64,000 nucleotides of DNA, taken from contig CAJLTZ010000001.1 of the NCBI GenBank assembly GCA_905209725.1, forward strand, positions 53 to 64,052, read 5' to 3'. Source of the stretch: an uncultured Muribaculaceae bacterium (GTDB lineage: Bacteria > Bacteroidota > Bacteroidia > Bacteroidales > Muribaculaceae). A program made the position numbers and the translations under genes. Within the stretch, counting starts at the first letter, position 1. Each line of letters begins with the position of its first letter. Under the pieces are notes generated by a model that was not told the origin of the DNA, did no database searches, and worked only from the letters and a program-made list of their open reading frames with translations. Of the stretch, positions 5,402 through 21,610 are shown piece by piece.

Positions 5402-6931
5402 ATGGATTTCACCAAACTCGCACGCCCTTATTTCTCAATGCTTTGCAAGCGAAGCGACCGCTGGGCTGCCTCTCCCGCCGAGGCTCAGCAGGCTCAATTG
5501 CGCTCGCTCCTGAAGCGTGGGGCCGGATCCGAGGTCGGCCGCCATTTCGCATTCTCGGAAATTGCCGCAATGGAGTCACCATACGCTGCCTTCGCAAGAA
5601 GAGTGGTGCCGGTGGAATATGAAGATATCCGGGAGGACGTGATGCGCATGGTAAATGGCGAGGCCGATGTGCTTTGGCCCGGCCGATGCATGGATTTCGC
5701 GCAGTCGTCGGGCACATCGGGTGGTCGCTCCAAATATGTGCCTATCACCCGCGACAGCCTTCAACGTTGCCATTATGCCGGCGCATCGTATGTCGTGGCA
5801 AATTATCTGCGTTGTGTGCCCGATTCGCGACTCTTCTCTGGGAAAGCATTCATACTCGGCGGTTCATTTGCCAGCGAATTGCATCCCGACAATCCGAGCG
5901 TCAGAATCGGCGACCTCTCCGCCTCCCTTATCCGAAACATCAATCCGCTTGCCGGACTCTTCCGCATCCCTTCGGCATCGGTGGCCCTGATGCCTGATTG
6001 GGAGAGCAAGCTGCCGGCCCTTGTAAAGGCTGCTTCTCATGCCAATGTCACCAACCTCTCCGGCGTGCCTTCATGGTTTCTTACCGTCATCAAGGGCGTG
6101 ATGAAAGAGCGCGGGGTGGAAAAGATTTCCGATGCCTGGCCTAATCTTGAGGTGTTCTTCCATGGAGGTATCTCCTTCGAGCCCTACCGTCAGATTTACA
6201 GTGACATCACCGACCCCACCCGGATGCACTTTATGGAGACATACAATGCATCCGAGGGATTCTTCGCCGCGCAGGACCGTCTTGAGAGCAGCGAGATGCT
6301 GCTGATTCTCGACAATGACGTGTTTTACGAATTTGTCGACATCTCTGAGCCGGGTTCCGATCCGCGCCCCATCTGGGAGATTGAGCCCGGGAAAGTGTAT
6401 GAATTGCTGATCACATCGAGCAATGGGCTCTGGCGCTACCGCATTGGGGACACGGTAAGGGTAGAGAGCATTTCGCCGGTAAGAATCAGGATAGCAGGAC
6501 GTACGAAAGCCTTTATCAATGCATTCGGCGAGGAACTGATGGAGGAGAATGCCGAGCGGGGGATTGCCGAAGCCTCGGAGTCCACGGGAGGCATCGTGCG
6601 CCACTACACGGCGGCTCCCGTATACGCCGACGGCGCCCACCGGGGACGCCATCAATGGATTATAGAATGGGAACGTGAGCCCTCAGATATCGCGGCATTC
6701 GCCCGCGTGCTCGACGCTTCGCTGCGCAAGGTGAATTCCGACTACGATGCCAAGCGCACCCATACGATTTTCCTCGACCCGCCGGAGGTGATCACAGTCC
6801 CGTCAGGCGCATTCGAGCGCTGGCTTCATAGCGTTGGTTCCGGCCGGCTTGGCGGACAGCGGAAAGTGCCGCGCCTTCGCAACGACCGCAGCATCGCCGA
6901 TGCCGTGCTTACATTAATTTCACAACGCTGA
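5402..6931 (+). CDS. GH3 family (auxin-responsive promoter-like) acyl-acid amido synthetase
   Basis: N-terminus (FTKLARPYFSMLCKRSDRW...AQQAQLRSLLKR) and overall 509 aa layout match Bacteroidetes GH3 proteins. Confidence 0.85.
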   Translation: MDFTKLARPYFSMLCKRSDRWAASPAEAQQAQLRSLLKRGAGSEVGRHFAFSEIAAMESPYAAFARRVVPVEYEDIREDVMRMVNGEADVLWPGRCMDFAQSSGTSGGRSKYVPITRDSLQRCHYAGASYVVANYLRCVPDSRLFSGKAFILGGSFASELHPDNPSVRIGDLSASLIRNINPLAGLFRIPSASVALMPDWESKLPALVKAASHANVTNLSGVPSWFLTVIKGVMKERGVEKISDAWPNLEVFFHGGISFEPYRQIYSDITDPTRMHFMETYNASEGFFAAQDRLESSEMLLILDNDVFYEFVDISEPGSDPRPIWEIEPGKVYELLITSSNGLWRYRIGDTVRVESISPVRIRIAGRTKAFINAFGEELMEENAERGIAEASESTGGIVRHYTAAPVYADGAHRGRHQWIIEWEREPSDIAAFARVLDASLRKVNSDYDAKRTHTIFLDPPEVITVPSGAFERWLHSVGSGRLGGQRKVPRLRNDRSIADAVLTLISQR

Positions 6932-8273
6932 CTGTGGTGCCCACCACTGCGCGTACCATTGCTATTTCATCTGCAGCCACTCCGGGGATTGCAATGCTTT
7001 CGCCTGCATTGCGGCGCTCGTAAAGTCTTGCTCCGGAGATTGAGAATACTTCCACAAGTTCCATCGGAGCATTGGCTTTCACTATAATCGCGTCGCCATC
7101 GCGCCAGGCGCGGAGACTTGCGTTTTCAGTTATGGCGGAGTCAATGTATGACACAATGTCAAGATTAAACCGGCTCCATACAGGATGCTGTTTCCAGGCA
7201 TTCTCTGTGCCCTTAAGCACACGCAGGGCGATATCATAATTCCCGTCAGCATTTTCAAGACCGGAAAAAGCATCTGTGTCAATTTCAGGTACGTTTTCTT
7301 CCAGTTCTGAAACATTCACATTGGATATGCCTGTATCGTTGCGGAAAGCGTGAGCCTTGATATTGGTCACGCCCGGCATAAGGTTCACTTGTGTGATCTG
7401 AGGATTGTTGGCATAAGCAGCCTCGCCTACTTCACGGGCATATACCGTGATGGTGCCTCTGGCCCCTGTATGCGCCATCACAAGCGCAGGAATATCGGCA
7501 GGCAGTGCGGGAATCGCCGCCAATACAGGATTGGCGAAAAAGACGCCTTTCCCCAGTTTCGGTGAATTTTCTACGGCATAGATTATGCCTGTGAGGCGTG
7601 GCATCTCTGCAAATGCGAAGTCTCCGATGCTTTTGATGTGGCGAAGGTCCACCATGCGGAGTCCTGAACGTCGGAAGGCAGTTGCACCGATTGTTTCGAT
7701 AGATTCGGGAAGCGTCATATCGAGCGATGTGCACCCCTCGAATGTCTTGTCGGGGATCTGACTTGTGTTAGCGCCGAAAGTGACGCTTGTCAGAGCCTCG
7801 TCACCGCTGAAGATTGCCTTGCCTAATTCTGGCGATGAGGCGAATGTGAAATTGGTCAGCGCCGGACAGCCGGAAAACGCATAGTCGCCGACTTTTTCGA
7901 TAGCGGCCGGAAGCACCATCTCCTCAATCATGGTGGCGGCAAACGCGTGGTCGCCGATGGATGTGGTAGCAGGATTCAGCTTCACCGTCCTCACATTGGT
8001 GCCAAAAAGCATATTGGCGGGAATCTGATTGGAGGGAAGGGTCAGGGATGAGATGTCCACAGAGGTCACCTCGCCGGAAAGCGAGCGCAGTGTGGCAAGG
8101 TCGGCCGCTGATGCCGCCCCCTCGAGAATCAGTTCGCCATCGGCGATAGCGGCCACCGCATCGGGGTCGGCAGCCAAAGAGCCGGGCGACACCTGAATCC
8201 GGGCCGCCCACGAGCCGGCTGCCGCCATAAGCGACACCGCTATTACTATAATGCTTCTTTTTATCGAGATCAT
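6909..8273 (-). CDS. BspA-type leucine-rich-repeat surface protein with T9SS C-terminal sorting domain
   Basis: Signal peptide, then repeated LRR_5-like units (IGDHAFA...VGDYAFSGC...IGATAFRRS...IGDFAFAEM). The C-terminus (EVFSISGARLYERRNAGESIAIPGVAADEIAMVRAVVGTTVSVVKLM) fits the Por_Secre_tail pattern. Confidence 0.75.
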   Translation of the reverse strand: MISIKRSIIVIAVSLMAAAGSWAARIQVSPGSLAADPDAVAAIADGELILEGAASAADLATLRSLSGEVTSVDISSLTLPSNQIPANMLFGTNVRTVKLNPATTSIGDHAFAATMIEEMVLPAAIEKVGDYAFSGCPALTNFTFASSPELGKAIFSGDEALTSVTFGANTSQIPDKTFEGCTSLDMTLPESIETIGATAFRRSGLRMVDLRHIKSIGDFAFAEMPRLTGIIYAVENSPKLGKGVFFANPVLAAIPALPADIPALVMAHTGARGTITVYAREVGEAAYANNPQITQVNLMPGVTNIKAHAFRNDTGISNVNVSELEENVPEIDTDAFSGLENADGNYDIALRVLKGTENAWKQHPVWSRFNLDIVSYIDSAITENASLRAWRDGDAIIVKANAPMELVEVFSISGARLYERRNAGESIAIPGVAADEIAMVRAVVGTTVSVVKLM

Positions 8274-8303: not shown

Positions 8304-11300
8304 TCAATTGACCACAAGTATCTTCGACACCTTTGAGAATGCCTCGGCATCGGGGCCGTTGGAGGCCAGCACAAGGTAGACTCCTGCCGGCACGCGCTTG
8401 TGGTGGATATTGGTTACATCCCAGCGGCATTCACCGCTGCTTGCGCGGCCGAGGTCGCGGATTAGGTTGCCTGCGGCATCTGTGATCTTTACGGTGGCAT
8501 CTTCGGGAAGCCCGTCAATAGTGACATATCCGAAATAGTCCGGGCGTACGGGGTTGGGGTATGCCCTTGCCGTGTCTTCGTCGCCGTCGCCTCCCGCTGA
8601 AGAGAGGTAGAGTTCGCAGTTGCCTTTGCCGGTGGACATTACAATCGAATTGGATGCCGGATTATAGATTATGCTGTACACTGCATTGTCGGGCAGCATG
8701 GAATTGTCGGAGTTATAGCTTTTGAGCACGGTGCGTCCATCGGCCGATGTGCACACCACTCCTGCGGTCATTGTGGCAAACCATTTGCGACCCTGCGAGT
8801 CGGAAGTGATTCCGGTCACTTCGATATCGTTGAGCAGATAGTCGGCAAGGCCGGTGCCGTCGTCGCGCGACACCTTTATGCTTCTTACATCGGGAGTGCC
8901 TGCCAGCACGCCGCGCGGATTGAATGTGAATACTCCGGCATTATGGCCAACCCAGACAAGACCGGTCGACGGATCCTCGTGCCAGGCGGTGACATACAGC
9001 ATATTCAGGTCGCGATTCAGTTCCTTTCCGTCCTGGTTTGTTGCGGAAAGAGTGAGGCGTCCCTCTTTGCGGGAGGCCGACGAACCGGGGTTGCCCTGAT
9101 GGTCAAGCACAAGGATAGGTGCTTCTTTGTTGCCGGCATGGAAGAGCACGAGATTTTTGTTGGCGCTCGTTTGAGTTGCAAAGATTGAGTAGGTGTATGA
9201 GGGTTGGATGCGGTAACTGAGCTTGTGCCAGGGGCGGAACGACGATACCGATTTTGAGGCCTCCCGGTCGGCCGGAGTCCAATACCAGAGTTCCACATAT
9301 GGAGTCCCTCCACCTGATATCGGGGTTTTGTCAGGGTCGATATGTGCGGTCCAGAGGATTCCGGATGTGTCGAACACCGGGTCGGCAAAACCACACTGCG
9401 TGGGATAATCTTTGTCGCTGTGAACGGGCACGCAATCCACGAAGCCCGGTTTCCCCTTGCCTCCGGCATGGTCGTTGGCCGCAGTCATGTGCAGTGATGC
9501 AGCGGGATTGGCGAGGTCGAGGCGAAGCATGCCATTTTCCTGCGAACCGCAATAAACGTGGTCTTTGTTCAACGGGTCGATGGCCACACCGCCGGGATTG
9601 TAGATGGTCATTCCGGGGAAATCGCCGCGATAAGTGGTGCTCAGAGGCGTCCATTTCCCATCCTTGTATCCGGCGATAAGGTCCGGTTCGCCGAGATGAA
9701 TGAAGAAATGGGAGTTGATGCCGTGATTTCGCAGAAGCACTCCATAAGTGGGGTGTATGGCGAGTTTTGTGGCGATGAATGCATTGGCGGCGTTGGGCAC
9801 AGAGGGATTGGCCGTGACTGTCCAGGCCGACTGCCCGGCTGCCGGCACACGCTTGCGGCTTACTCCCTTCCTGCCATTCGACACCCAATATTCCCTGCCG
9901 TCATAACTGGCAGCAGGACAATCCTTGTCGGCCTCGGCCCGGGCAATCTCAGTCTGCTTCCCGGCTGTGTCGAATTGAAGAATCCGGTTACCTTCCACTA
10001 TGGAGAGGGTCTGAGCACCGCGTTCCAGGGAATATGCACGATTTTGGGAGATCACGGAGCCTGTCGGCACTCCGTTGCTGATGCTGTAATATCCGCTCGC
10101 GGGAGAACCGAACTTTCCATGGAGGGCATATAGACGGTCGCCCCAGGGCAGAAAGCGCTGCACCGGTTTTGAAATGCCCCTGAGAGCCTCAAGGTCGGAA
10201 AACGACTGGCCGCGGCCATCGCTGTAATAGTTACCCTCGGGAGTGCTTACAAAAAGAATTCCCTTGAAGCGCACTGCGGCATTTACGCGTCGGCGATATA
10301 TACGCGACTCCTCCACCTCCCCTTTCTTGGGGTCGATTTCGGCATATCCGAAATCCGTGGCCACGAATGCGTGTCCGTTGTCAGGGCTGAATGTGATGCT
10401 GCGAGGACGCCGCGAAAGCTCGGAGTCGGCAAGCAGAAGCGCCGGAATGTTTTTGATTTCCCCGTTGTCGTAAAATATGTCGATGTTGCCGTTGTCGTAG
10501 GCCACCATCAGATATTTGCCGTCGTAATTGTATTCGGCGCAATTCACGATATATTCGGAGGCTCCTTCATTGCGGCCTATATGGCGCCATTCTTCGCTCT
10601 CCTTGTCGAATACAAAGAGATTGATATAGATGTTGTTGAAATTGTCTAAGCCGGAATTGTCTTCATATGGCTGCATGAATGGAAGCACATATAGCCGGTC
10701 TTTTGTGTCGATGATTCGGGCGAGGGAGCCGTCGTAAGTGGGGAGGATTCTCCATTGCTCGGCGTTTGCGGAGAATGCTGCCGTGAGCGTGATGATGGCG
10801 GCCACGATGATGCCGAGGAAGTCGCGGAGTTTGCGCAGGGCTCTTCCGCGGTGGGAGATGGCGTTTTTGTCGTCGGCGCTCATCTCTGCGAAGCATTTGC
10901 CCGACTCCTTGGCACGGAAGATGGGATCGTAGCCGAATCCTCCGTCGCCGTGGCGTTCCGTGGTAATCTTGCCGTCCACGCTGCCCGTGAAGCAATGCTC
11001 CTCGCCGTCGGCGCAAAGGGCGATGACCGTGCGAAACTGTGCGTCACGATTCTCGATGCCCTCCATCTCGTGAAGGAGTTTGGTTACATTCTCGTCGGGC
11101 GTGCAGTGTTCGCCGGCGTAGCGGGCGCTGTATACTCCTGGAGCGCCGTTGAGAGCCTCCACGCAGAGCCCTGTGTCGTCGGCGAAACAGTCGTAGCCGT
11201 AGCGGTCGCGAACCCACCGGGCCTTCTGAAGGGCATTCCCTTCAAGGGTGTTCGCTGTCTCCGGTATCTCGTCGTGACAGTTTATCTCGGCAAGCGACAC

Positions 11301-11390
11301 AATTTGAAACCCGTCGGAAACAATCCGGCGGGCCTCTTCAAGTTTATGCTGATTGTTGGTTGCAAATACAAGAGCCTTCTTCTGATTCAT
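8304..11390 (-). CDS. rdgB: single 1028-codon frame: N-terminal RdgB/HAM1 dITP/XTP pyrophosphatase (~195 aa) continuing with no stop into a hydrophobic signal/anchor segment, a Reg_prop-like beta-propeller region and a T9SS C-terminal sorting domain
   Basis: N-terminus [14 protein letters not shown]...GFGYDPIF...[10 protein letters not shown] is canonical Ham1. Immediately after comes [24 protein letters not shown], which is signal-peptide-like and has no in-frame ATG (only a GTG near 10805). Later motifs [14 protein letters not shown] and [12 protein letters not shown] are Reg_prop-like. The C-terminus [29 protein letters not shown] is a T9SS CTD. No stop codon lies between the domains. Confidence 0.6.
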
Positions 11391-11430: not shown

Positions 11431-12762
11431 TTAAGAGGGTGCGTTATTGCGCAGGCCGATGCAGGAGTATTCGAAGCCCTCGGAGTTGAGCTGGCGGGCG
11501 TCGTAGATATTTCGGCCGTCGATAATCACGCGGGTGCGCATTGTGCGGTGGAGCACATTCCAGGATGGGAGACGGAACTGTTTCCACTCCGTGAGCAGGA
11601 GCACGGCGTCGGCGTCAAGTGCTGCCTCATAGATATTGGAGGCATACTCTATGGAATCGCCGAGACGGCGGCGGGCCTCATCCATGGCCACAGGGTCGTA
11701 GGCCACCACCGATGCGCCGGCCTCAAGCAGACGGGCCACAATACGCAGCGAGGGAGCCTCGCGCATGTCGTCGGTGTCGGGCTTGAATGCAAGGCCCCAT
11801 AATGCAATACGCTTGCCTCGCAGGTCAGGGCCGAAACGCTCCACAAGTTTGTCGAAAAGGCGCTCTTTCTGGCGCTCGTTGACGCTGTCCACAGCCTCGA
11901 GCACCTGCATCTTATAGCCATGCTTGGCCGCGGTCTTTATCAGTGCCTTCACATCCTTAGGAAAGCATGAGCCTCCGTAGCCGCATCCGGGATAGAGGAA
12001 TTTTGATCCGATGCGCGTGTCGGCACCGATGCCGGTGCGCACCATATTCACGTCGGCCCCCACGAGTTCGCAAAGGTTGGCGATGTCGTTCATGAATGAG
12101 ATGCGGGTGGCCAGCATAGAATTGGCGGCATATTTAATCATTTCTGCCGATGGAATGTCGGTGAATATCATGCGGTATTTATTGAGCATGAAGGGCTTGT
12201 AGAGGCGCTCCATCAGTTCGCGGGCGCGCTCGCTCTCCACACCTACCACCACGCGGTCGGGATGCATGAAGTCGGTCACGGCACGTCCCTCTTTCAGGAA
12301 TTCGGGATTGGATGCGACGTCGAATTCTATGTCGATGTCGCGCATCTCGAGTTCTTCGCGGATGGCGTCCTTCACCTTCTTCGCCGTGCCCACCGGCACA
12401 GTCGACTTGGTGACCACCAGCTTATATCCGTTCATCGTGCGTCCGATTGTATGTGCCACATCCAGCACATACCGCAGGTCGGCCGATCCGTCCTCGTCGG
12501 GTGGCGTGCCCACAGCCGAGAAAATCACCTCCACATCGTCGATAATCTCCTTCAGGTCGGTGGTGAATTTAAGTCTGCCCTCGGCATAATTCCGTTTCAC
12601 CTTGTCCTCGAGCCCGGGCTCATAGATGGGGATCACCCCCGCCTTCAGGTTTCCAATCTTTCTGGCATCCACATCAACGCAGGTCACGTCGACGCCCATT
12701 TCTGCAAAGCAGGTTCCGGTGACGAGTCCTACATATCCGGTTCCGACAATCGCTATTTTCAT
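11431..12762 (-). CDS. ugd: UDP-glucose 6-dehydrogenase (UDP-glucose/GDP-mannose dehydrogenase family)
   Basis: [16 protein letters not shown] Rossmann N-terminus and catalytic GGSCFPKD motif. Confidence 0.9.
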
Positions 12763-12806: not shown

Positions 12807-14177
12807 TTACTCATAGCGTATGCGGCATTTGCGGAGCACTTTCCAATATCCATTCTCGAAGATGGCGGTGCCGTCGCTTTCGGTCACGATTGCCGACACG
12901 CCGATTGTATCTTCAAGATTATCGCCGGAGCATCCTGGGGCAAGATATTCATTGGGGTTGGAGAGAGCTAGTTCCACCACCTCGGGGTCGTCGGCCACAT
13001 AGAAGGTGCCCACAAGGCCGTCGTTTGTGTCGAGACGGTAAATCGTGTTTCCGGGGCTGAGGCGACGGTCGGCGCGTACGAAAATACCACGCGAGTTGGC
13101 TCTGCCAAGATAGATCTCGTGGATAATCGGGCGTTCCTCGGCTACAGCCTTACGGCGTTCCTCGCGGCGCGGTTCTTCGCGGCGGGGCTCCACTCGGCGC
13201 GGTTCCTCGCGACGCGGTTCTTCGTAGCGGGGTTCCTCTCTGCGCGGAAGGGGATTGCGTGCCTCAGATGCGGCAAGAAGGTCGCCACGGAGTTTCTCAA
13301 TCTGCGCAAGCAAACGCTTGTTGTCGAGTTTATAGCGTTCGAGCTCGGCGCCGATCTCGCTGCTTCTTCCCTCTTCCATTTCGAGGCGGCGGCGCAGGTC
13401 GTCAATCTCTTCATTTTTCTTTGTGAGAGCCTCCTTGGCCTTCTCCCGGAGTGATGAAATCTCGGAAGCATCCTCCTTGCTGCGGCTTTCGCTGCGGGGC
13501 TGTTGCTGCTTCTTCATCACATTGGCGGCATATACCACCAGCCATATCACCACAGCCACCAGCACCACGAGGATAATCACGTATACCACCGTGTTGCCAT
13601 CCTCCTGCTGCGTTGGGGGTGCGTTTTTGTCGGCATCCTCGCTTATGGCCTGCTGGTCGGCAAGGATATCCTGCTGGTCGGCCGCAGGTGCGTCGGCCGC
13701 AGGGGTGGCTTCAGCAGCGGATGTTGTGGCCGGGTCGGGCGTTGTGGCCTCGGGTACAGGCTCAGGCGCCGGCGCGGGTGCAGAGGGTGCTGATACATTC
13801 ATCGCCGATATCTGCTTGCGCACTCTTCCGCGGGCAGCCTTTCCCTTGTCGGAAAGCCCTGAACTCTGGAAGAAGGTCGACGACCAGTATTCCACGAGTT
13901 TCTCCTTGTCCCAGGAAGCATAGTCGGCAGGCACCTTCACGGCCTCGAATGCCCGCAGGTTCTCCTTCTCCTTGGCTTTAAGGCTTCCTTTAAGCTGCGT
14001 CATTGATGTGGCCTTCACATCGTCGAGATAGCCGGAACCATCATTGGCATAACGCAGATAGGCCTTCGCCGCTATGGCGCGGGCCTCATCCATTTCCTTA
14101 TCCGTGACAGCCATGGCCGCCACCGATACCAGCATCATTGCTGAAAGCAGAATCGCACGTCTCAATATTCTAATCAT
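12807..14177 (-). CDS. hypothetical bitopic membrane protein: signal peptide, Pro/Ala/Thr-rich linker, one TM helix, coiled coil, (EEPRR)x6 repeat, conserved C-terminal domain
   Basis: N-terminus MIRILRRAILLSAMMLVSVAAMA; TM segment VVYVIILVVLVAVVIWLVVYAA; repeat PRREEPRYEEPRREEPRRVEPRREEPRREERRK, encoded by ~15 bp DNA tandem repeats around 13140-13260. Confidence 0.6.
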   Translation of the reverse strand: MIRILRRAILLSAMMLVSVAAMAVTDKEMDEARAIAAKAYLRYANDGSGYLDDVKATSMTQLKGSLKAKEKENLRAFEAVKVPADYASWDKEKLVEYWSSTFFQSSGLSDKGKAARGRVRKQISAMNVSAPSAPAPAPEPVPEATTPDPATTSAAEATPAADAPAADQQDILADQQAISEDADKNAPPTQQEDGNTVVYVIILVVLVAVVIWLVVYAANVMKKQQQPRSESRSKEDASEISSLREKAKEALTKKNEEIDDLRRRLEMEEGRSSEIGAELERYKLDNKRLLAQIEKLRGDLLAASEARNPLPRREEPRYEEPRREEPRRVEPRREEPRREERRKAVAEERPIIHEIYLGRANSRGIFVRADRRLSPGNTIYRLDTNDGLVGTFYVADDPEVVELALSNPNEYLAPGCSGDNLEDTIGVSAIVTESDGTAIFENGYWKVLRKCRIRYE

Positions 14178-14243: not shown

Positions 14244-15617
14244 TCAAAGTTCCTTGCGCAAGCGGGCCACGGGTATCCCGAGCCTGTCGCGGTATTTTGC
14301 CACGGTGCGGCGCTTCAGGTCGAAGCCCTCGGCGTTCATCGTTTCCATCAGCCGCTGGTCGCTGAGAGGATGGCGCTTGTCCTCCTTCTCCACAAGCGTG
14401 CGGATGCGCGCCTCGATCATGCGGTTGGTGGTGGCTTCCTCGCTCTCACCTTTGTCCCCCTTCTCGTCGCTGAAGAAAAAGCGCAGCGGGAACACTCCCC
14501 AGGGCGTGGAAACGTATTTATTGTTGGTGGCTCTTGATATCACGGAAATATCGAGTCCCGTGATGTCGGCCACTGTCTTGATCATCATCGGTTTGAGCCT
14601 GTACACATTGCGTGTCATGAAATATTCGTGCTGCAGCTTTATGATGGCGCTCATCACGGTCATCATTGTGTTCTGCCGCTGCTGGAGCACTCGGATGAAG
14701 TCGCGGGCATCATTATATCGGCTCACGATATATTCCGACCCCTTTCGCGGGCGGCCTGTAGGGGTGCGGTCCACGCTCGCCATGGCCTGCTCGAAGCTCT
14801 TGGCAATCTGAAGTTCCGGCACGCTGTTGTTGAGCGTCACATAGAATTCTCCCTCCTCCTCCGTGACCACAAAGTCGGGCACAATCACTCCGGCTGTGTC
14901 GGCGGGGTCGTTGCCCATCGACGCGCCGGGTTTCGGATTGAGGCTTTTTATGAGCGAAAGCGCATTGTCGGCCTCGGCATCTGAGAGTTTCAGCAACGAG
15001 CGTATGCGGTGGCGATGCTTCATGGTGAATGCCTCGTAGGCATCAGCGAGGATACGCAGGGCATTGTCGCGCTCGGGGCTTGCAGGCATTGCCCGCAATT
15101 GAATCTGCAGGCACTCCCGCAGGTTGGCGGCGCCCACTCCGGCCGGATCGAGTCGCTGCACCTCAGCGAGAGCCTGACGGCCCTCCTCCTCGCTTACCTC
15201 TACTCCCTCGCGGAAGGCCATCTCATCAATCAGATGATGCAGTCCGCCCCGCAGATATCCGTTGGAGTCGAGATTGCCGATAAGATACCTTGCGGCAAAT
15301 TCCACCTTCGGCGAGAGATTGCGCTCGGAAAGCTGGGTGTTGAGATAGTCGTAGAGGTTGGCGGTGCGGTCGGCCGGTGCAAATTCATAGTCTTCACTTT
15401 GCGATGAGCGGCGGGAGAACAACGGATAGCGCCGTGTGTCCTCTTCGTGCACCTCCTCTTTTTCCACAAGAGCCTCATTCTCTTCGAGCTCGCGCTCCAC
15501 AGTTTCATCGAGTTCGGGCGCATTGAGTTCCAGCAACCTCACATAGCGAAGCTGCTGCTGCGAAAGTATCGGACGCTGTGCGAGCGTCTGCCGTGTCTCG
15601 AGATTCTGTGTGGGCAT
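14244..15617 (-). CDS. rpoN: RNA polymerase sigma-54 factor
   Basis: Gln/Leu-rich N-terminus (RPILSQQQLRYVRLLELN) and a C-terminal RpoN box (RRTVAKYRDRLGIPVARLRKEL). Start placed at the internal Met (MPTQNLE), because the ORF-track extension runs into the tRNA. Confidence 0.9.
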   Translation of the reverse strand: MPTQNLETRQTLAQRPILSQQQLRYVRLLELNAPELDETVERELEENEALVEKEEVHEEDTRRYPLFSRRSSQSEDYEFAPADRTANLYDYLNTQLSERNLSPKVEFAARYLIGNLDSNGYLRGGLHHLIDEMAFREGVEVSEEEGRQALAEVQRLDPAGVGAANLRECLQIQLRAMPASPERDNALRILADAYEAFTMKHRHRIRSLLKLSDAEADNALSLIKSLNPKPGASMGNDPADTAGVIVPDFVVTEEEGEFYVTLNNSVPELQIAKSFEQAMASVDRTPTGRPRKGSEYIVSRYNDARDFIRVLQQRQNTMMTVMSAIIKLQHEYFMTRNVYRLKPMMIKTVADITGLDISVISRATNNKYVSTPWGVFPLRFFFSDEKGDKGESEEATTNRMIEARIRTLVEKEDKRHPLSDQRLMETMNAEGFDLKRRTVAKYRDRLGIPVARLRKEL

Positions 15618-15652
15618 CTTGCGTCTGGGGCTTTTGCTGATTCCCCAAGATG

Positions 15653-15684
15653 CAAAATTATTAATTTTTGACAATATCAGCAAA
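15653..15684 (-). promoter_or_regulatory. rpoN promoter: -33 TTTG, 20 nt spacer, -7 TAATTTTG
   Basis: Minus-strand read TTTGctgatattgtcaaaaattaaTAATTTTG, about 35 nt upstream of the rpoN ATG and downstream of the tRNA terminator. Confidence 0.55.
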
Positions 15685-15712
15685 TAAAAAAGGAGAGACC
15701 TGAGGCCTCTCC
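15681..15712 (-). terminator. rho-independent terminator after tRNA-Leu (9 bp stem GGAGAGGCC/GGTCTCTCC followed by a T6 tract)
   Basis: Hairpin ggagagacctgaggcctctcc at ~15692-15712, followed on the minus strand by TTTTTTATTTG. Confidence 0.7.
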
Positions 15713-15721
15713 ATGTCAGCG

Positions 15722-15806
15722 TACAGAAAGTGGGACTCGAACCCACACAGCCGATAAGGGCCAGGAGATTTTAAGTCTCCCGTGTCTACCATTCCACCAT
15801 TTCTGC
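15722..15806 (-). tRNA. tRNA-Leu (anticodon TAA), type II with long variable arm, no encoded CCA
   Basis: Minus-strand read GCAGAAATGGTGGAATGGTAGACACGGGAGACTTAAAATCTCCTGGCCCTTATCGGCTGTGTGGGTTCGAGTCCCACTTTCTGTA. Acceptor stem 7 bp with a G1:U72 wobble, anticodon loop CTTAAAA, T-arm GGTTCGAGTCC. Coordinates are +/-2. Confidence 0.85.
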
Positions 15807-18940: not shown

Positions 18941-21610
18941 TTAGAACTCCTGGCCGAGCACGAAGTGGATCTGGCTGCCGCCCTTGCGTCCCCACACTTT
19001 GTCGAAACCGTATGCCCAGTCGATGCCGAGGAAGCCGAGCACGCTGAGGTATACACGGGCGCCGACGCCGGCCGAACGTTTCAGGTTGAAGGGCGAGAAG
19101 TCTTTCACCGATGTCCAGCAGTTGCCCGCCTCTGCGAAGGCAATTGCATAGATGGTGGTGGAGGGCTGGAGAAGGAACGGGAAGTGGAGCTCGAGGGAGA
19201 ATTTGCCGTAGGCGTAGCCTTCATAGCCCGAGGGAGTGAACTGACCGTTCTCGTATCCGCGCATGGCGATGGTCTCCGTGGCATAGGTGTAGGAGCCCGA
19301 CATGCCGTCGCCGCCGAAATAGAAGGTCTCGAAAGGAGTCTTGAGATATTTGTTCCATGACCCCAGCAGACCGAAATCGGCGCGTGTCATGAGCACGAGG
19401 GTCCATTTGCCGTCAGGGTCTGTGAGCGGAGTAAAGGTCTTGCTCTTGAAGCGGAGTTTCCAGTATTCAATCCATTTATAGAGCTGTCCGCGGGCTGCTT
19501 CTCGGGAACTGCTGTCCTGATTGAAATAACTTGCCTGTTCGGAGAGCGACCTCCAGTCCTTGCGTCCGAAGAGAGAGGCGGGGGGAGTGGCGGTGAAATC
19601 AATCGAGAATTGTGATCCGCGGCGTGTATAGATCGGGTTGTCGATACTTGTGCGCGACAATGTCAGTCCTAGAGTAAGGGAGTTTGACGTACCGTTGCGC
19701 ATATAGTAGAGGTAATCCCAGTTTTTCAGATAATACCAGCGGTAGGCCAGCTGAGCCTGGAACTGGAAATAGTCGTCGGGCCAGCTGAGTCGTGTGCCGA
19801 ATCCCACGCTCACGCCTGCGAGCTGAAGCACCTTGTTGGGGTCGTAGGCATTCTGGATGGCATAGGAGGAATAGTTGGTATTATAGGAATACTGGTTCCA
19901 TACTGCATTCTGATATGCGGAGCTCCAGGCATCGTTGTAGAATTGGGAGTTGATACCTGTGGAACGGCTGAAGTCTACTGATACGGCAAGTGAGTTGGGG
20001 CGGCTGCCTCCAATCCAGGGGTCGAAGAAACTGATTGAATAGCTTTGATAATACTGGGCGTTGGTCTGCGCCGAGATGGAGAAAGTCTGACCGTCGCCTC
20101 GCGGTATTATGCCCCTGTAGCTCTTCGGATTGAAGAGGTTCTTCATCGAGAAGTTGGAGAATGATAGCGCGAGCTGTCCGGTGAGGCCGGTCTGTCCCCA
20201 GCCGAAGGAAAGCTGAATCTTGTCGTTGGCCTTCTGCTCGAGATTGAACACGATGTCCACCGTGCCGTCATTCTCGTTAGGCATCGGGCGGATATCCATA
20301 TTCTCCGGATTGAAATGGCCGCCGGCTGCGATCTCACGCGCCGAGCGCATCAGGTCGCTCTTCGAGAAAAGCTCGCCGGGGCGCACGCGCAGTTCGCGGC
20401 GGATCACCTTCTCATACAATTGGTCGTTACCATTGATGATTACCTTGTTCACCTTTGCCTGCGGACCCTCGATCACACGCATCTGCAGCGCGATGCTGTC
20501 GCCCTTGATGCGCTCCTCAATGGGCACAAGTTGGAAGAAGAGATAACCGTTGTCGAGATAGAGGTTGGCCACGGCATCTTCATCGTCCATCGTGCGCTTG
20601 TTGAGCATCTTCTGGTTGTAAACGTCGCCGGGGTACATACCCAATATCATATTGAGCGTCTCGGTGGGATAGACCGTATTGCCCACCCAGGAGATGTCGC
20701 TGATGTAATATTTCTTGCCCTCATCCACGTCGATGAACACGTCGACGCTCTTGTCGTCGTAGCGGGCCACGCTGTCGTGGGTGATTTTGGCGTCGCGGTA
20801 GCCGAGCTCGTTGTATTTGTCGATGATGCGCTGGAGGTCGTCCTCGAAGTCGCGCTCCACAAATTTGCGCTGTTTGAAGATGTTCAGCAGGTTGCCGCTC
20901 TCGTTGGTCTTCTTCATGGTGCGTTTCACCTTATTGTCCGAAAGCACCTGATTGCCCTTGACATAAATCTTGTGGACCTTGATCTTGCTGTTGCGGTTCA
21001 CGTCGATGTTGAGGATCACCATGTTCTCCTTCGAGAGGTCGGGCTGTTCGATCACGCGCACCTGGGCATTCTTGAAGCCCTTTTTCGCATAATATTCTTC
21101 CACGAGTCTCTTCACCTGGGCGATGATATTGGGAGTGAGTTGTTGTCCCGACACCATGCCGAGTCGCTGTTCGATATCCTTTTTCTCGCCACCCTTCACT
21201 CCATTGAACCTCATTTCCGACATGCGGGGCTGCTGGTTGAGCACAATCTCGAGCCATGCCTTGTCGCCCGCAATCTTCTCCACGTTAATCTGCACCTTGG
21301 AATAGAGGCCCTGACGCCAGAAGCGGCGCACGGCATCAGTGATTTCCTGGCCGGGAATCTCAATTTTGTCGCCCACGGAGAGCCCCGAATATCCAATCAC
21401 CACATAGTCCTCGGCATTCTTGATTCCCGACACCTTGACGCCTGCGATTTCATAGGTCTTGGGCATCGGGGAATAAATGATGTCGGGATTGTAGATGGTG
21501 TCCACGGGGGCAGTGGGCTGTTGTTCCCCATCGAGCTTTATGTCGAGAGCCGAGGCTGACAGCGCAGCCAATGCGGCAAGGAGGATGAATATGGAGCGGA
21601 TATGTTTCAT
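18941..21610 (-). CDS. bamA: outer membrane protein assembly factor BamA
   Basis: 889 aa with a signal peptide, POTRA-like repeats, and a C-terminal Omp85 beta-barrel ending ...HFVLGQEF. Confidence 0.92.
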   Translation of the reverse strand: MKHIRSIFILLAALAALSASALDIKLDGEQQPTAPVDTIYNPDIIYSPMPKTYEIAGVKVSGIKNAEDYVVIGYSGLSVGDKIEIPGQEITDAVRRFWRQGLYSKVQINVEKIAGDKAWLEIVLNQQPRMSEMRFNGVKGGEKKDIEQRLGMVSGQQLTPNIIAQVKRLVEEYYAKKGFKNAQVRVIEQPDLSKENMVILNIDVNRNSKIKVHKIYVKGNQVLSDNKVKRTMKKTNESGNLLNIFKQRKFVERDFEDDLQRIIDKYNELGYRDAKITHDSVARYDDKSVDVFIDVDEGKKYYISDISWVGNTVYPTETLNMILGMYPGDVYNQKMLNKRTMDDEDAVANLYLDNGYLFFQLVPIEERIKGDSIALQMRVIEGPQAKVNKVIINGNDQLYEKVIRRELRVRPGELFSKSDLMRSAREIAAGGHFNPENMDIRPMPNENDGTVDIVFNLEQKANDKIQLSFGWGQTGLTGQLALSFSNFSMKNLFNPKSYRGIIPRGDGQTFSISAQTNAQYYQSYSISFFDPWIGGSRPNSLAVSVDFSRSTGINSQFYNDAWSSAYQNAVWNQYSYNTNYSSYAIQNAYDPNKVLQLAGVSVGFGTRLSWPDDYFQFQAQLAYRWYYLKNWDYLYYMRNGTSNSLTLGLTLSRTSIDNPIYTRRGSQFSIDFTATPPASLFGRKDWRSLSEQASYFNQDSSSREAARGQLYKWIEYWKLRFKSKTFTPLTDPDGKWTLVLMTRADFGLLGSWNKYLKTPFETFYFGGDGMSGSYTYATETIAMRGYENGQFTPSGYEGYAYGKFSLELHFPFLLQPSTTIYAIAFAEAGNCWTSVKDFSPFNLKRSAGVGARVYLSVLGFLGIDWAYGFDKVWGRKGGSQIHFVLGQEF

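Follow-up and report, generated by a model that had tools for sequence, protein, structure and literature searches.

Organization of the locus

The subject of this study is a single reading frame in a 64,000-nucleotide stretch of DNA from an uncultured Muribaculaceae bacterium (GenBank assembly GCA_905209725.1, contig CAJLTZ010000001.1, positions 53 to 64,052), hereafter the window, in which the coding sequence of RdgB/Ham1, a non-canonical purine NTP pyrophosphatase, runs into that of PorZ, a type IX secretion system (T9SS) protein. The open reading frame (ORF), taken from the ORF list and read codon by codon, is made up of three parts: a complete RdgB/Ham1 enzyme, an uncharged hydrophobic stretch (residues 191-210, with A-N-A at its end) and a full PorZ. 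No in-frame stop interrupts the ORF at any codon, and no in-frame ATG is present at the junction between Met170 and Met239. The coordinates and codons agree with a preliminary description of this DNA, made from the sequence alone, which had reported a single frame passing through rdgB into a downstream protein without a stop or a junction ATG, as well as a GTG codon near 10805 (Val196, 10805-10803). The elements of the ORF are as follows.

8304..11390, reverse strand: RdgB-PorZ fusion ORF, 1028 codons plus stop, ATG start
10815..11390, reverse strand: RdgB/Ham1 non-canonical purine NTP pyrophosphatase domain, residues 1-192, from Pfam, NCBIfam and PDB matches
10821..10850, reverse strand: basic end of the RdgB C-terminal helix, R181-D190, standing in for a signal-peptide n-region
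10803..10805, reverse strand: GTG codon, Val196, the sole canonical alternative start codon within the junction
10773..10820, reverse strand: hydrophobic core, F191-F206, homologous to the h-region of the PorZ signal peptide
10761..10772, reverse strand: c-region S-A-N-A, residues 207-210, with a predicted signal peptidase I site after A210
between nucleotides 10761 and 10760, reverse strand: predicted signal peptidase I cut, from small residues at -3 and -1 in fixed register
8307..10760, reverse strand: mature PorZ, residues 211-1028, two beta-propellers plus C-terminal domain, from NF052228, Pfam and Foldseek
8307..8567, reverse strand: T9SS C-terminal beta-sandwich domain of PorZ, approximately residues 942-1028, from model strands 942-1026

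Two complete proteins in one reading frame

The upstream half is, by sequence and predicted fold, a member of the non-canonical purine NTP pyrophosphatase family, with the corresponding activity predicted, in agreement with the earlier assignment of the first ~195 codons to RdgB/Ham1. Pfam Ham1p_like (PF01725) covers residues 7-190 with an E value of 1e-67 and 228 bits (cutoff 22.5), taking in profile positions 1-185 of 186, and NCBIfam PRK14823 and TIGR00042 match this half with 278 bits (cutoff 272) and 194 bits (cutoff 145), respectively. PDB entries 4bnq and 1k7k were matched in the sequence search, the identity to solved structures being about 40%. The Ham1 fold is present in an AlphaFold2 model built from the alignment of 73 fused homologues (mean predicted local distance difference test score [pLDDT], 88), the N-domain giving a TMt of 0.91 and a root mean square deviation (rmsd) of 1.9 Å to 4bnq and a TMt of 0.85 to 1k7k. 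Residues T11, N12, N13, K16, E19, E44, T45, K56, D71, D72, T73 and G74 are invariant in the 73 homologues, as are F152, G153, Y154, D155, P156, K175, S179, H180 and R181; they make up the substrate- and metal-binding motifs (the N-terminal T-N-N-x-x-K...E, DDTGL, FGYDP and SHR), whose catalytic role is presumed, as for the family in general. Fused and unfused lineages are alike in the identity of their RdgB to that of the window's protein (the query), at 55-77% and 56-72%, respectively.

The downstream part is PorZ, a protein of the T9SS attachment complex that is both component and cargo of the system. NF052228 (T9SS_PorZ), the NCBIfam equivalog for the T9SS anionic lipopolysaccharide (A-LPS) delivery protein PorZ, matches residues 257-1028 with 303.4 bits (cutoff 260) over profile positions 52-757 of 757, and Pfam PorZ_N_b_propeller spans residues 257-390. 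The structure of Porphyromonas gingivalis PorZ, 5m11, was matched in the sequence search (E value of 1.4e-28), its residues 456-742 corresponding to residues 721-1010 of the fusion, and is also the best PDB match of the model in Foldseek (E value of 3.1e-45, TMt of 0.81). The propeller protein of ~800 residues noted previously in this place is borne out, the fold match to 5m11 giving two beta-propellers; its treatment as T9SS cargo is refined by the equivalog score above cutoff and the 5m11 fold, which identify a component of the secretion system. As to the "classic T9SS C-terminal sorting domain" that had been described, the domain itself is supported by equivalog and fold, but the generic type-A sorting domain profile TIGR04183 reaches 17.3 bits against a cutoff of 23 and is weak when taken alone. 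Our call of a PorZ C-terminal domain follows from the NF052228 match reaching the last profile position, together with the fold match to 5m11. Pfam PF18962 is recorded for some fused homologues, and many PorZ positions, including those of the C-terminal domain, are invariant across the 73 fused proteins. In P. gingivalis, PorZ is a surface protein from which the signal peptide M1-A25 is cleaved while the C-terminal domain stays intact (PMC5121618, PMC8545088, PMC5445135); the surface location, the binding of A-LPS and the need for PorZ in T9SS function have been reported for P. gingivalis only (PMC5121618, PMC8545088).

The fusion is genuine and selectively maintained

At least 23 contigs (ENA, Logan), differing in sample and assembler, encode the exact 1028-residue protein, always with identical neighbours. 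In a search of 5.8 billion proteins, the best 120 clusters were all full-length proteins of ~1000-1040 residues carrying both Pfam domains, with identities reaching down to 39%, and those that carry a name belong to Muribaculaceae. The junction has a constant form in the alignment, in which the RdgB C-terminal helix is followed by an uncharged hydrophobic run, a small-x-small motif and then (E/S/A)(Q/D/E)W(R/K). We conclude that the rdgB-porZ fusion is genuine and selectively maintained, and sequence comparison shows purifying selection on each half of the fused protein across two deep clades. A sequencing or assembly indel, which the preliminary description had left open, is ruled out by the at least 23 identical, independent contigs and the more than 120 diverged full-length homologues. 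The wider alternative, in which either such an artefact or a recent inactivating mutation merged two genes, found no support and is given a negligible probability, since the fusion is conserved, with both halves under selection, in two deep clades. One public metagenome-assembled genome holds a fused gene that looks frameshifted (locus L015, DAAI01000019.1), an appearance due only to NN in the record at locus nucleotides ~838-839, exactly at the junction. In a fused homologue of 1104 residues (P0088), the RdgB helix and the hydrophobic core are set apart by ~26 additional residues (MIEQSAIELRNKPGNPDSSITSTLKNS), so the length of the linker is not strictly fixed.

Since there is no stop after RdgB, this enzyme can arise only as the N-terminal part of the full-length chain, from which it follows logically that the full-length product must be functional or at least harmless. 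Fused proteins of ~1020 residues are already contained in public databases, where they are named solely "non-canonical purine NTP diphosphatase", and with this RdgB-only annotation PorZ, and hence a complete T9SS, would be missed in many Muribaculaceae genomes. No paper on the fusion, or on a link between PorZ and RdgB/Ham1, was found in the literature searched.

The gene pair and the origins of the fusion

A scan of species-representative genomes yielded 80 Muribaculaceae loci (L003-L082), and all 79 for which the upstream sequence is available have rdgB immediately ahead of porZ in the same orientation. The two genes are fused in 33 of the 79 loci, with one more if L015, scored as unfused for the NN at its junction, is counted. 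In the remaining ~46 loci they are separate, at distances of -11 to +222 nucleotides and in many cases with a 4-nucleotide ATGA stop/start overlap. An rdgB stop and a separate porZ start, which the preliminary description had thought that close relatives might reveal, are thus present in part of the family and missing in the fused part. Among more distant PorZ loci (L086-L165), obtained by a metagenome scan with a separate alignment of distant PorZ proteins, rdgB is directly upstream on the same strand in 49 of the 64 with enough flanking sequence, often with the ATGA overlap; 5 of these 49 are fused, all of them resembling the fused clade B described below. When the PorZ part of the query was compared with representatives at 50% identity, most close relatives were stand-alone proteins of ~820-840 residues with signal peptides of the form MK(K/R)-h-region-AXA, and only three representatives in the set were fused. 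Judged by these comparisons, the rdgB-porZ gene pair is much older and broader than the fusion; we found no mention of this synteny in the T9SS literature searched.

A neighbour-joining tree of the PorZ part (100 bootstraps) supported the query's fused clade A with 95, a second fused clade B with 100 and the grouping of fused L038 with its unfused sister L060 with 100. Monophyly of all fused sequences was recovered in 0 of 100 bootstraps, on which a single origin of the fusion was rejected, and Fitch parsimony placed an unfused state at the root with three gains. On the tree and parsimony together, the fusion arose at least three times independently. The three junctions differ (RKLRDFLG-, AMMKWLS- and ALISFLMM-), each joining the end of the last RdgB helix to the h-region. 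In two unfused loci, L011 and L060, rdgB and porZ stand in the same frame with one stop codon and a short spacer between them, an arrangement from which a small deletion would be enough to produce a fusion. The unfused clade that is sister to clade A (L011, at position ~3953, and L018, L019 and L035) apparently starts porZ at TTG; the sequence TTG-AAA/AGA-... reads M-K/R-R/K-h-region-A followed by EQW, whereas only 6-9 residues of signal peptide would remain with a start at the first ATG.

These results describe a gene fusion with an internal signal sequence, to which three independent origins, long-term retention and the wide conservation of the pairing give added interest.

The predicted internal signal sequence

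All parts of a signal peptide are present at the junction, namely, an n-region (RKLRD), a 16-residue hydrophobic core and a c-region (SANA), and the segment of the query aligns with the signal-peptide h-regions of unfused PorZ orthologues. It begins ~185 residues into the ORF, with no conserved start codon before it, and this internal position makes it an internal signal or signal-anchor rather than a classical signal peptide. The resemblance to an N-terminal Sec signal peptide pointed out in the preliminary description thus extends to the charged, hydrophobic and small-residue parts, not to the position. Small residues occupy -3 in 110 and -1 in 109 of 115 fused proteins, in fixed register from a conserved QW, and the cleavage motif is conserved as (A/S/V)-x-(A/S). 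The junction of fused proteins is more hydrophobic than the corresponding segment of unfused ones (maximal 10-residue Kyte-Doolittle value of 2.98 versus 2.63, P of 5e-8, uncorrected for phylogeny; 3.2 in the query), and more positive charge precedes the hydrophobic run (net 2.5 versus 1.8, P of 5e-11, likewise uncorrected). In the AlphaFold2 model, one continuous helix extends over residues 180-204, the pLDDT drops below 50 at 206-209 and the first PorZ strand begins at 212.

From these sequence features, cleavage by signal peptidase I after A210 is favoured over retention of the anchor, since the (A/S/V)-x-(A/S) motif is conserved and the T9SS C-terminal domain is intact; both the fold and the C-terminal domain of PorZ are conserved, although a protein fixed permanently in the inner membrane would be unable to get to the surface. 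The architecture had been called topologically paradoxical, which overstates the matter. An N-terminal domain in the cytoplasm, a single N-in helix and a C-terminal domain in the periplasm form an ordinary bitopic layout, so that the chain, before it is cleaved, is unusual but not paradoxical.

Proposed origin and processing of the chain

The ancestor of the window's lineage, like most relatives, would have had an rdgB gene ending a few codons past "...HRGRAxRKLxDFL" and a porZ gene starting about -11 to +220 nucleotides away, often with an ATGA overlap and with an ordinary Sec signal peptide. A small deletion would then have taken out the stop codon of rdgB together with the start and the MK(K/R) n-region of porZ, leaving the basic C-terminal helix of RdgB continuous with the hydrophobic core of the PorZ signal peptide. 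The fusion would in this way hard-wire a 1:1 co-expression that translational coupling had already approximated.

We consider it fairly probable that the chain is translated in full, inserted into the Sec pathway by its internal signal-anchor and cleaved by signal peptidase I, which frees PorZ; cleavage at the membrane would probably turn one chain into two proteins, each with a compartment of its own. The proposed steps are the following: (i) the ribosome would make the entire 1028-residue chain; (ii) RdgB would fold in the cytoplasm; (iii) the hydrophobic segment inside the chain, flanked N-terminally by positive charges, would engage the signal recognition particle and Sec as an N-in signal-anchor; (iv) the PorZ part of ~820 residues would be translocated; (v) signal peptidase I would cut after A-N-A210, releasing PorZ into the periplasm; (vi) PorZ would be exported by the T9SS via its C-terminal domain and join the surface attachment complex; and (vii) RdgB would keep the signal peptide at its C terminus and stay on the cytoplasmic side, either tethered or, if the signal peptide is degraded, freed. 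Of these steps, we infer Sec targeting, the N-in orientation, signal peptidase I cleavage and the fate of RdgB. Several points weigh against this scheme: the comparisons of hydrophobicity and charge are phylogenetically non-independent; the cleavage site was placed by the -3/-1 rule and by homology to the signal peptides of unfused orthologues; and the in-frame GTG of the query (Val196) as well as a conserved "MMKW" in clade B could be internal starts, so that some PorZ may be made separately.

The last point leads to an alternative in which PorZ comes mainly from an in-frame start at the junction, with a normal N-terminal signal peptide, and RdgB is supplied by the read-through fusion, a by-product that the cell tolerates. 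We regard this as unlikely, though it deserves consideration. The candidate starts are the GTG of Val196 or a weak CTG (Leu185) in the window and ATG in many relatives. Non-ATG starts appear to be used in the family, as the TTG of the unfused sister clade indicates, and many clade-A genes have an ATG right after HRGRA, which would give a good signal peptide (MRKLRDFLG...). In clade B, "M(M/V)KW" stands just before the hydrophobic core in 30 of 30 protein clusters. However, at the DNA level no start codon is conserved in position at the junction across the 33 fused genome loci. No Met lies 15 or more residues before the cleavage motif in 33 of the 85 clade-A protein clusters (39%), the query among them. 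The only in-frame ATG, GTG or TTG codons of L016 and of L083-L085 (three further clade-A loci beyond the 33) leave no basic n-region and 10-16 residues ahead of the cleavage motif, and a start at the query's GTG would likewise yield a 15-residue signal peptide without one. The Met after HRGRA is less frequent in fused (7 of 28) than in unfused (29 of 47) genes, which marks it as a feature of RdgB and not as a selected start. Signals of initiation upstream were also sought: the A or AT content of synonymous positions over the ten codons that precede the junction did not differ between fused and unfused genes (P of 0.1-0.7), and TAnnTTTG, the Bacteroidetes -7 promoter motif, is absent from the whole ORF and rare in the 3' ends of fused and unfused rdgB. 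Moreover, each ribosome that starts at rdgB reads into PorZ, and the full-length chain must be handled in any case. A conserved internal start was rejected for clade A on the 33 fused genome loci, the three further loci and the 115 protein clusters. From this sequence evidence, internal initiation cannot be the general route to an exportable PorZ; as a side route, from GTG196 in the query or from "MMKW" in clade B, it is possible. The idea of a lost rdgB stop combined with an internal non-ATG start, raised in the preliminary description, accordingly fails as a general mechanism and keeps a place as this side route.

A permanent type II membrane protein, in which the anchor stays uncleaved and PorZ faces the periplasm from the inner membrane in a changed role, appears quite improbable to us. 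The segment is as hydrophobic as a membrane helix, by the Kyte-Doolittle maxima of the query and of fused proteins given above, and the model draws it as part of one continuous helix. Against this, its uncharged run is only ~19-20 residues long, matching the cleavable signal peptides of unfused orthologues in length, ~95% of fused proteins keep small residues at -3 and -1 in fixed register, and the conserved T9SS C-terminal domain and PorZ fold make sense only if PorZ crosses the outer membrane. P. gingivalis PorZ, too, acts at the cell surface (PMC5121618, PMC8545088). A genuine fusion giving a type II-anchored protein was among the options offered by the preliminary description; the fusion is favoured, and the motif and C-terminal domain argue for cleavage in place of its permanent anchor.

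Neighbouring genes and possible significance

Two genes on the same strand flank the fusion ORF.

11431..12762, reverse strand: UDP-glucose 6-dehydrogenase gene, upstream, ending 40 nucleotides before the fusion ORF
6909..8273, reverse strand: BspA-type LRR_5 protein gene, downstream, 30 nucleotides after the fusion ORF

The UDP-glucose 6-dehydrogenase gene is probably in the same transcription unit as the fusion. The LRR_5 gene has the same position in clade-A relatives (L001, L083-L085, L166-L171), and a convergent GH3-family gene at 5402-6931 on the forward strand overlaps its 3' end by 23 nucleotides. Farther upstream, on the reverse strand, an ORF of 456 residues at 12807-14177 combines a signal-like segment at the N terminus with another hydrophobic stretch, a region resembling a coiled coil and "EPRREEPRR" repeats, and matches no Pfam family above threshold; 14244-15746 and 18941-21610, also on the reverse strand, encode sigma-54 (RpoN) and a POTRA-rich, BamA-like outer-membrane protein. 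A scan of eight neighbouring ORFs revealed no other T9SS gene.

The broad synteny of rdgB and porZ pairs a nucleotide-sanitising enzyme with a T9SS component. The adjacency or overlap of the two genes in most PorZ loci sampled, together with at least three fusions, suggests that the pairing may be non-accidental. It is then conceivable, although we hold it to be a long shot, that the two proteins share an unrecognised functional link and that the fusion is a natural "two-compartment polyprotein", in which cleavage by signal peptidase I would regulate both halves. Such a link could possibly take one of two forms: (i) RdgB may be delivered to, or act at, the place on the inner membrane at which Sec takes up PorZ or T9SS cargo, and (ii) RdgB and PorZ may stand in an obligate 1:1 dosage relationship. 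If the proposed processing is correct, the fusion would be a natural, repeatedly evolved bacterial polypeptide that signal peptidase splits into a cytoplasmic housekeeping enzyme and a surface protein, the latter passing through two successive secretion systems. It would also mean that Sec signal peptides can be efficient ~190 residues inside a chain, behind a folded domain, and would show how translational coupling slides into translational fusion.

Comparison with known systems

The closest counterpart of the downstream half is P. gingivalis PorZ (PG1604/PGN_0509, PDB 5m11), which belongs to the T9SS attachment complex and hands A-LPS to the PorU sortase. The two share a pair of beta-propellers and an Ig-like C-terminal domain, the model superposing on 5m11 at an identity of only ~19%, and the position of the predicted cleavage site in the fusion corresponds to the end of the P. 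gingivalis signal peptide, M1-A25, followed by Q26 (PMC5121618). P. gingivalis PorZ, like most PorZ, is a stand-alone protein of ~780-840 residues with an N-terminal signal peptide, whereas the fusion has lost the Met and n-region and carries a cytoplasmic enzyme of 190 residues ahead of the h-region. That enzyme resembles known RdgB/Ham1/ITPase proteins (Escherichia coli 1k7k/2pyu and Staphylococcus aureus 4bnq) in having a full-length domain, an rmsd of ~2 Å and conserved motif residues. Known RdgB proteins are soluble and stand-alone, with ~190-220 residues; in the fusion, by contrast, the C-terminal helix of RdgB continues into a membrane-type helix, and the enzyme would be made membrane-tethered, at least initially.

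For the processing as a whole, the nearest parallels are the flavivirus capsid-anchor-prM and hepatitis C virus core-E1 polyproteins, in which one chain carries an internal signal sequence with a signal-peptidase site and gives an N-terminal product that is cytoplasmic or membrane-bound and an exported C-terminal product. The signal peptide of the viral polyproteins stays at the C terminus of the upstream product, as it would in the processing proposed here. The fusion differs from them in that its cleavage is predicted, its upstream product, a soluble housekeeping enzyme, has no known connection with the downstream one, its downstream product takes a second, outer-membrane secretion system and its design evolved repeatedly from an overlapping gene pair. 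Among bacteria, the Bradyrhizobium FbcH cytochrome b/c1 precursor is a polyprotein split by signal peptidase. Finally, RseA-type anti-sigma factors are bitopic, N-in inner-membrane proteins with a cytoplasmic domain, one helix and a periplasmic domain, and the fusion has the same predicted topology before cleavage, with positive residues on the cytoplasmic side of the helix; the helices of RseA-type proteins, however, lack the origin from a signal peptide, the conserved AXA site and the T9SS-exported protein behind the helix that distinguish the RdgB-PorZ fusion.

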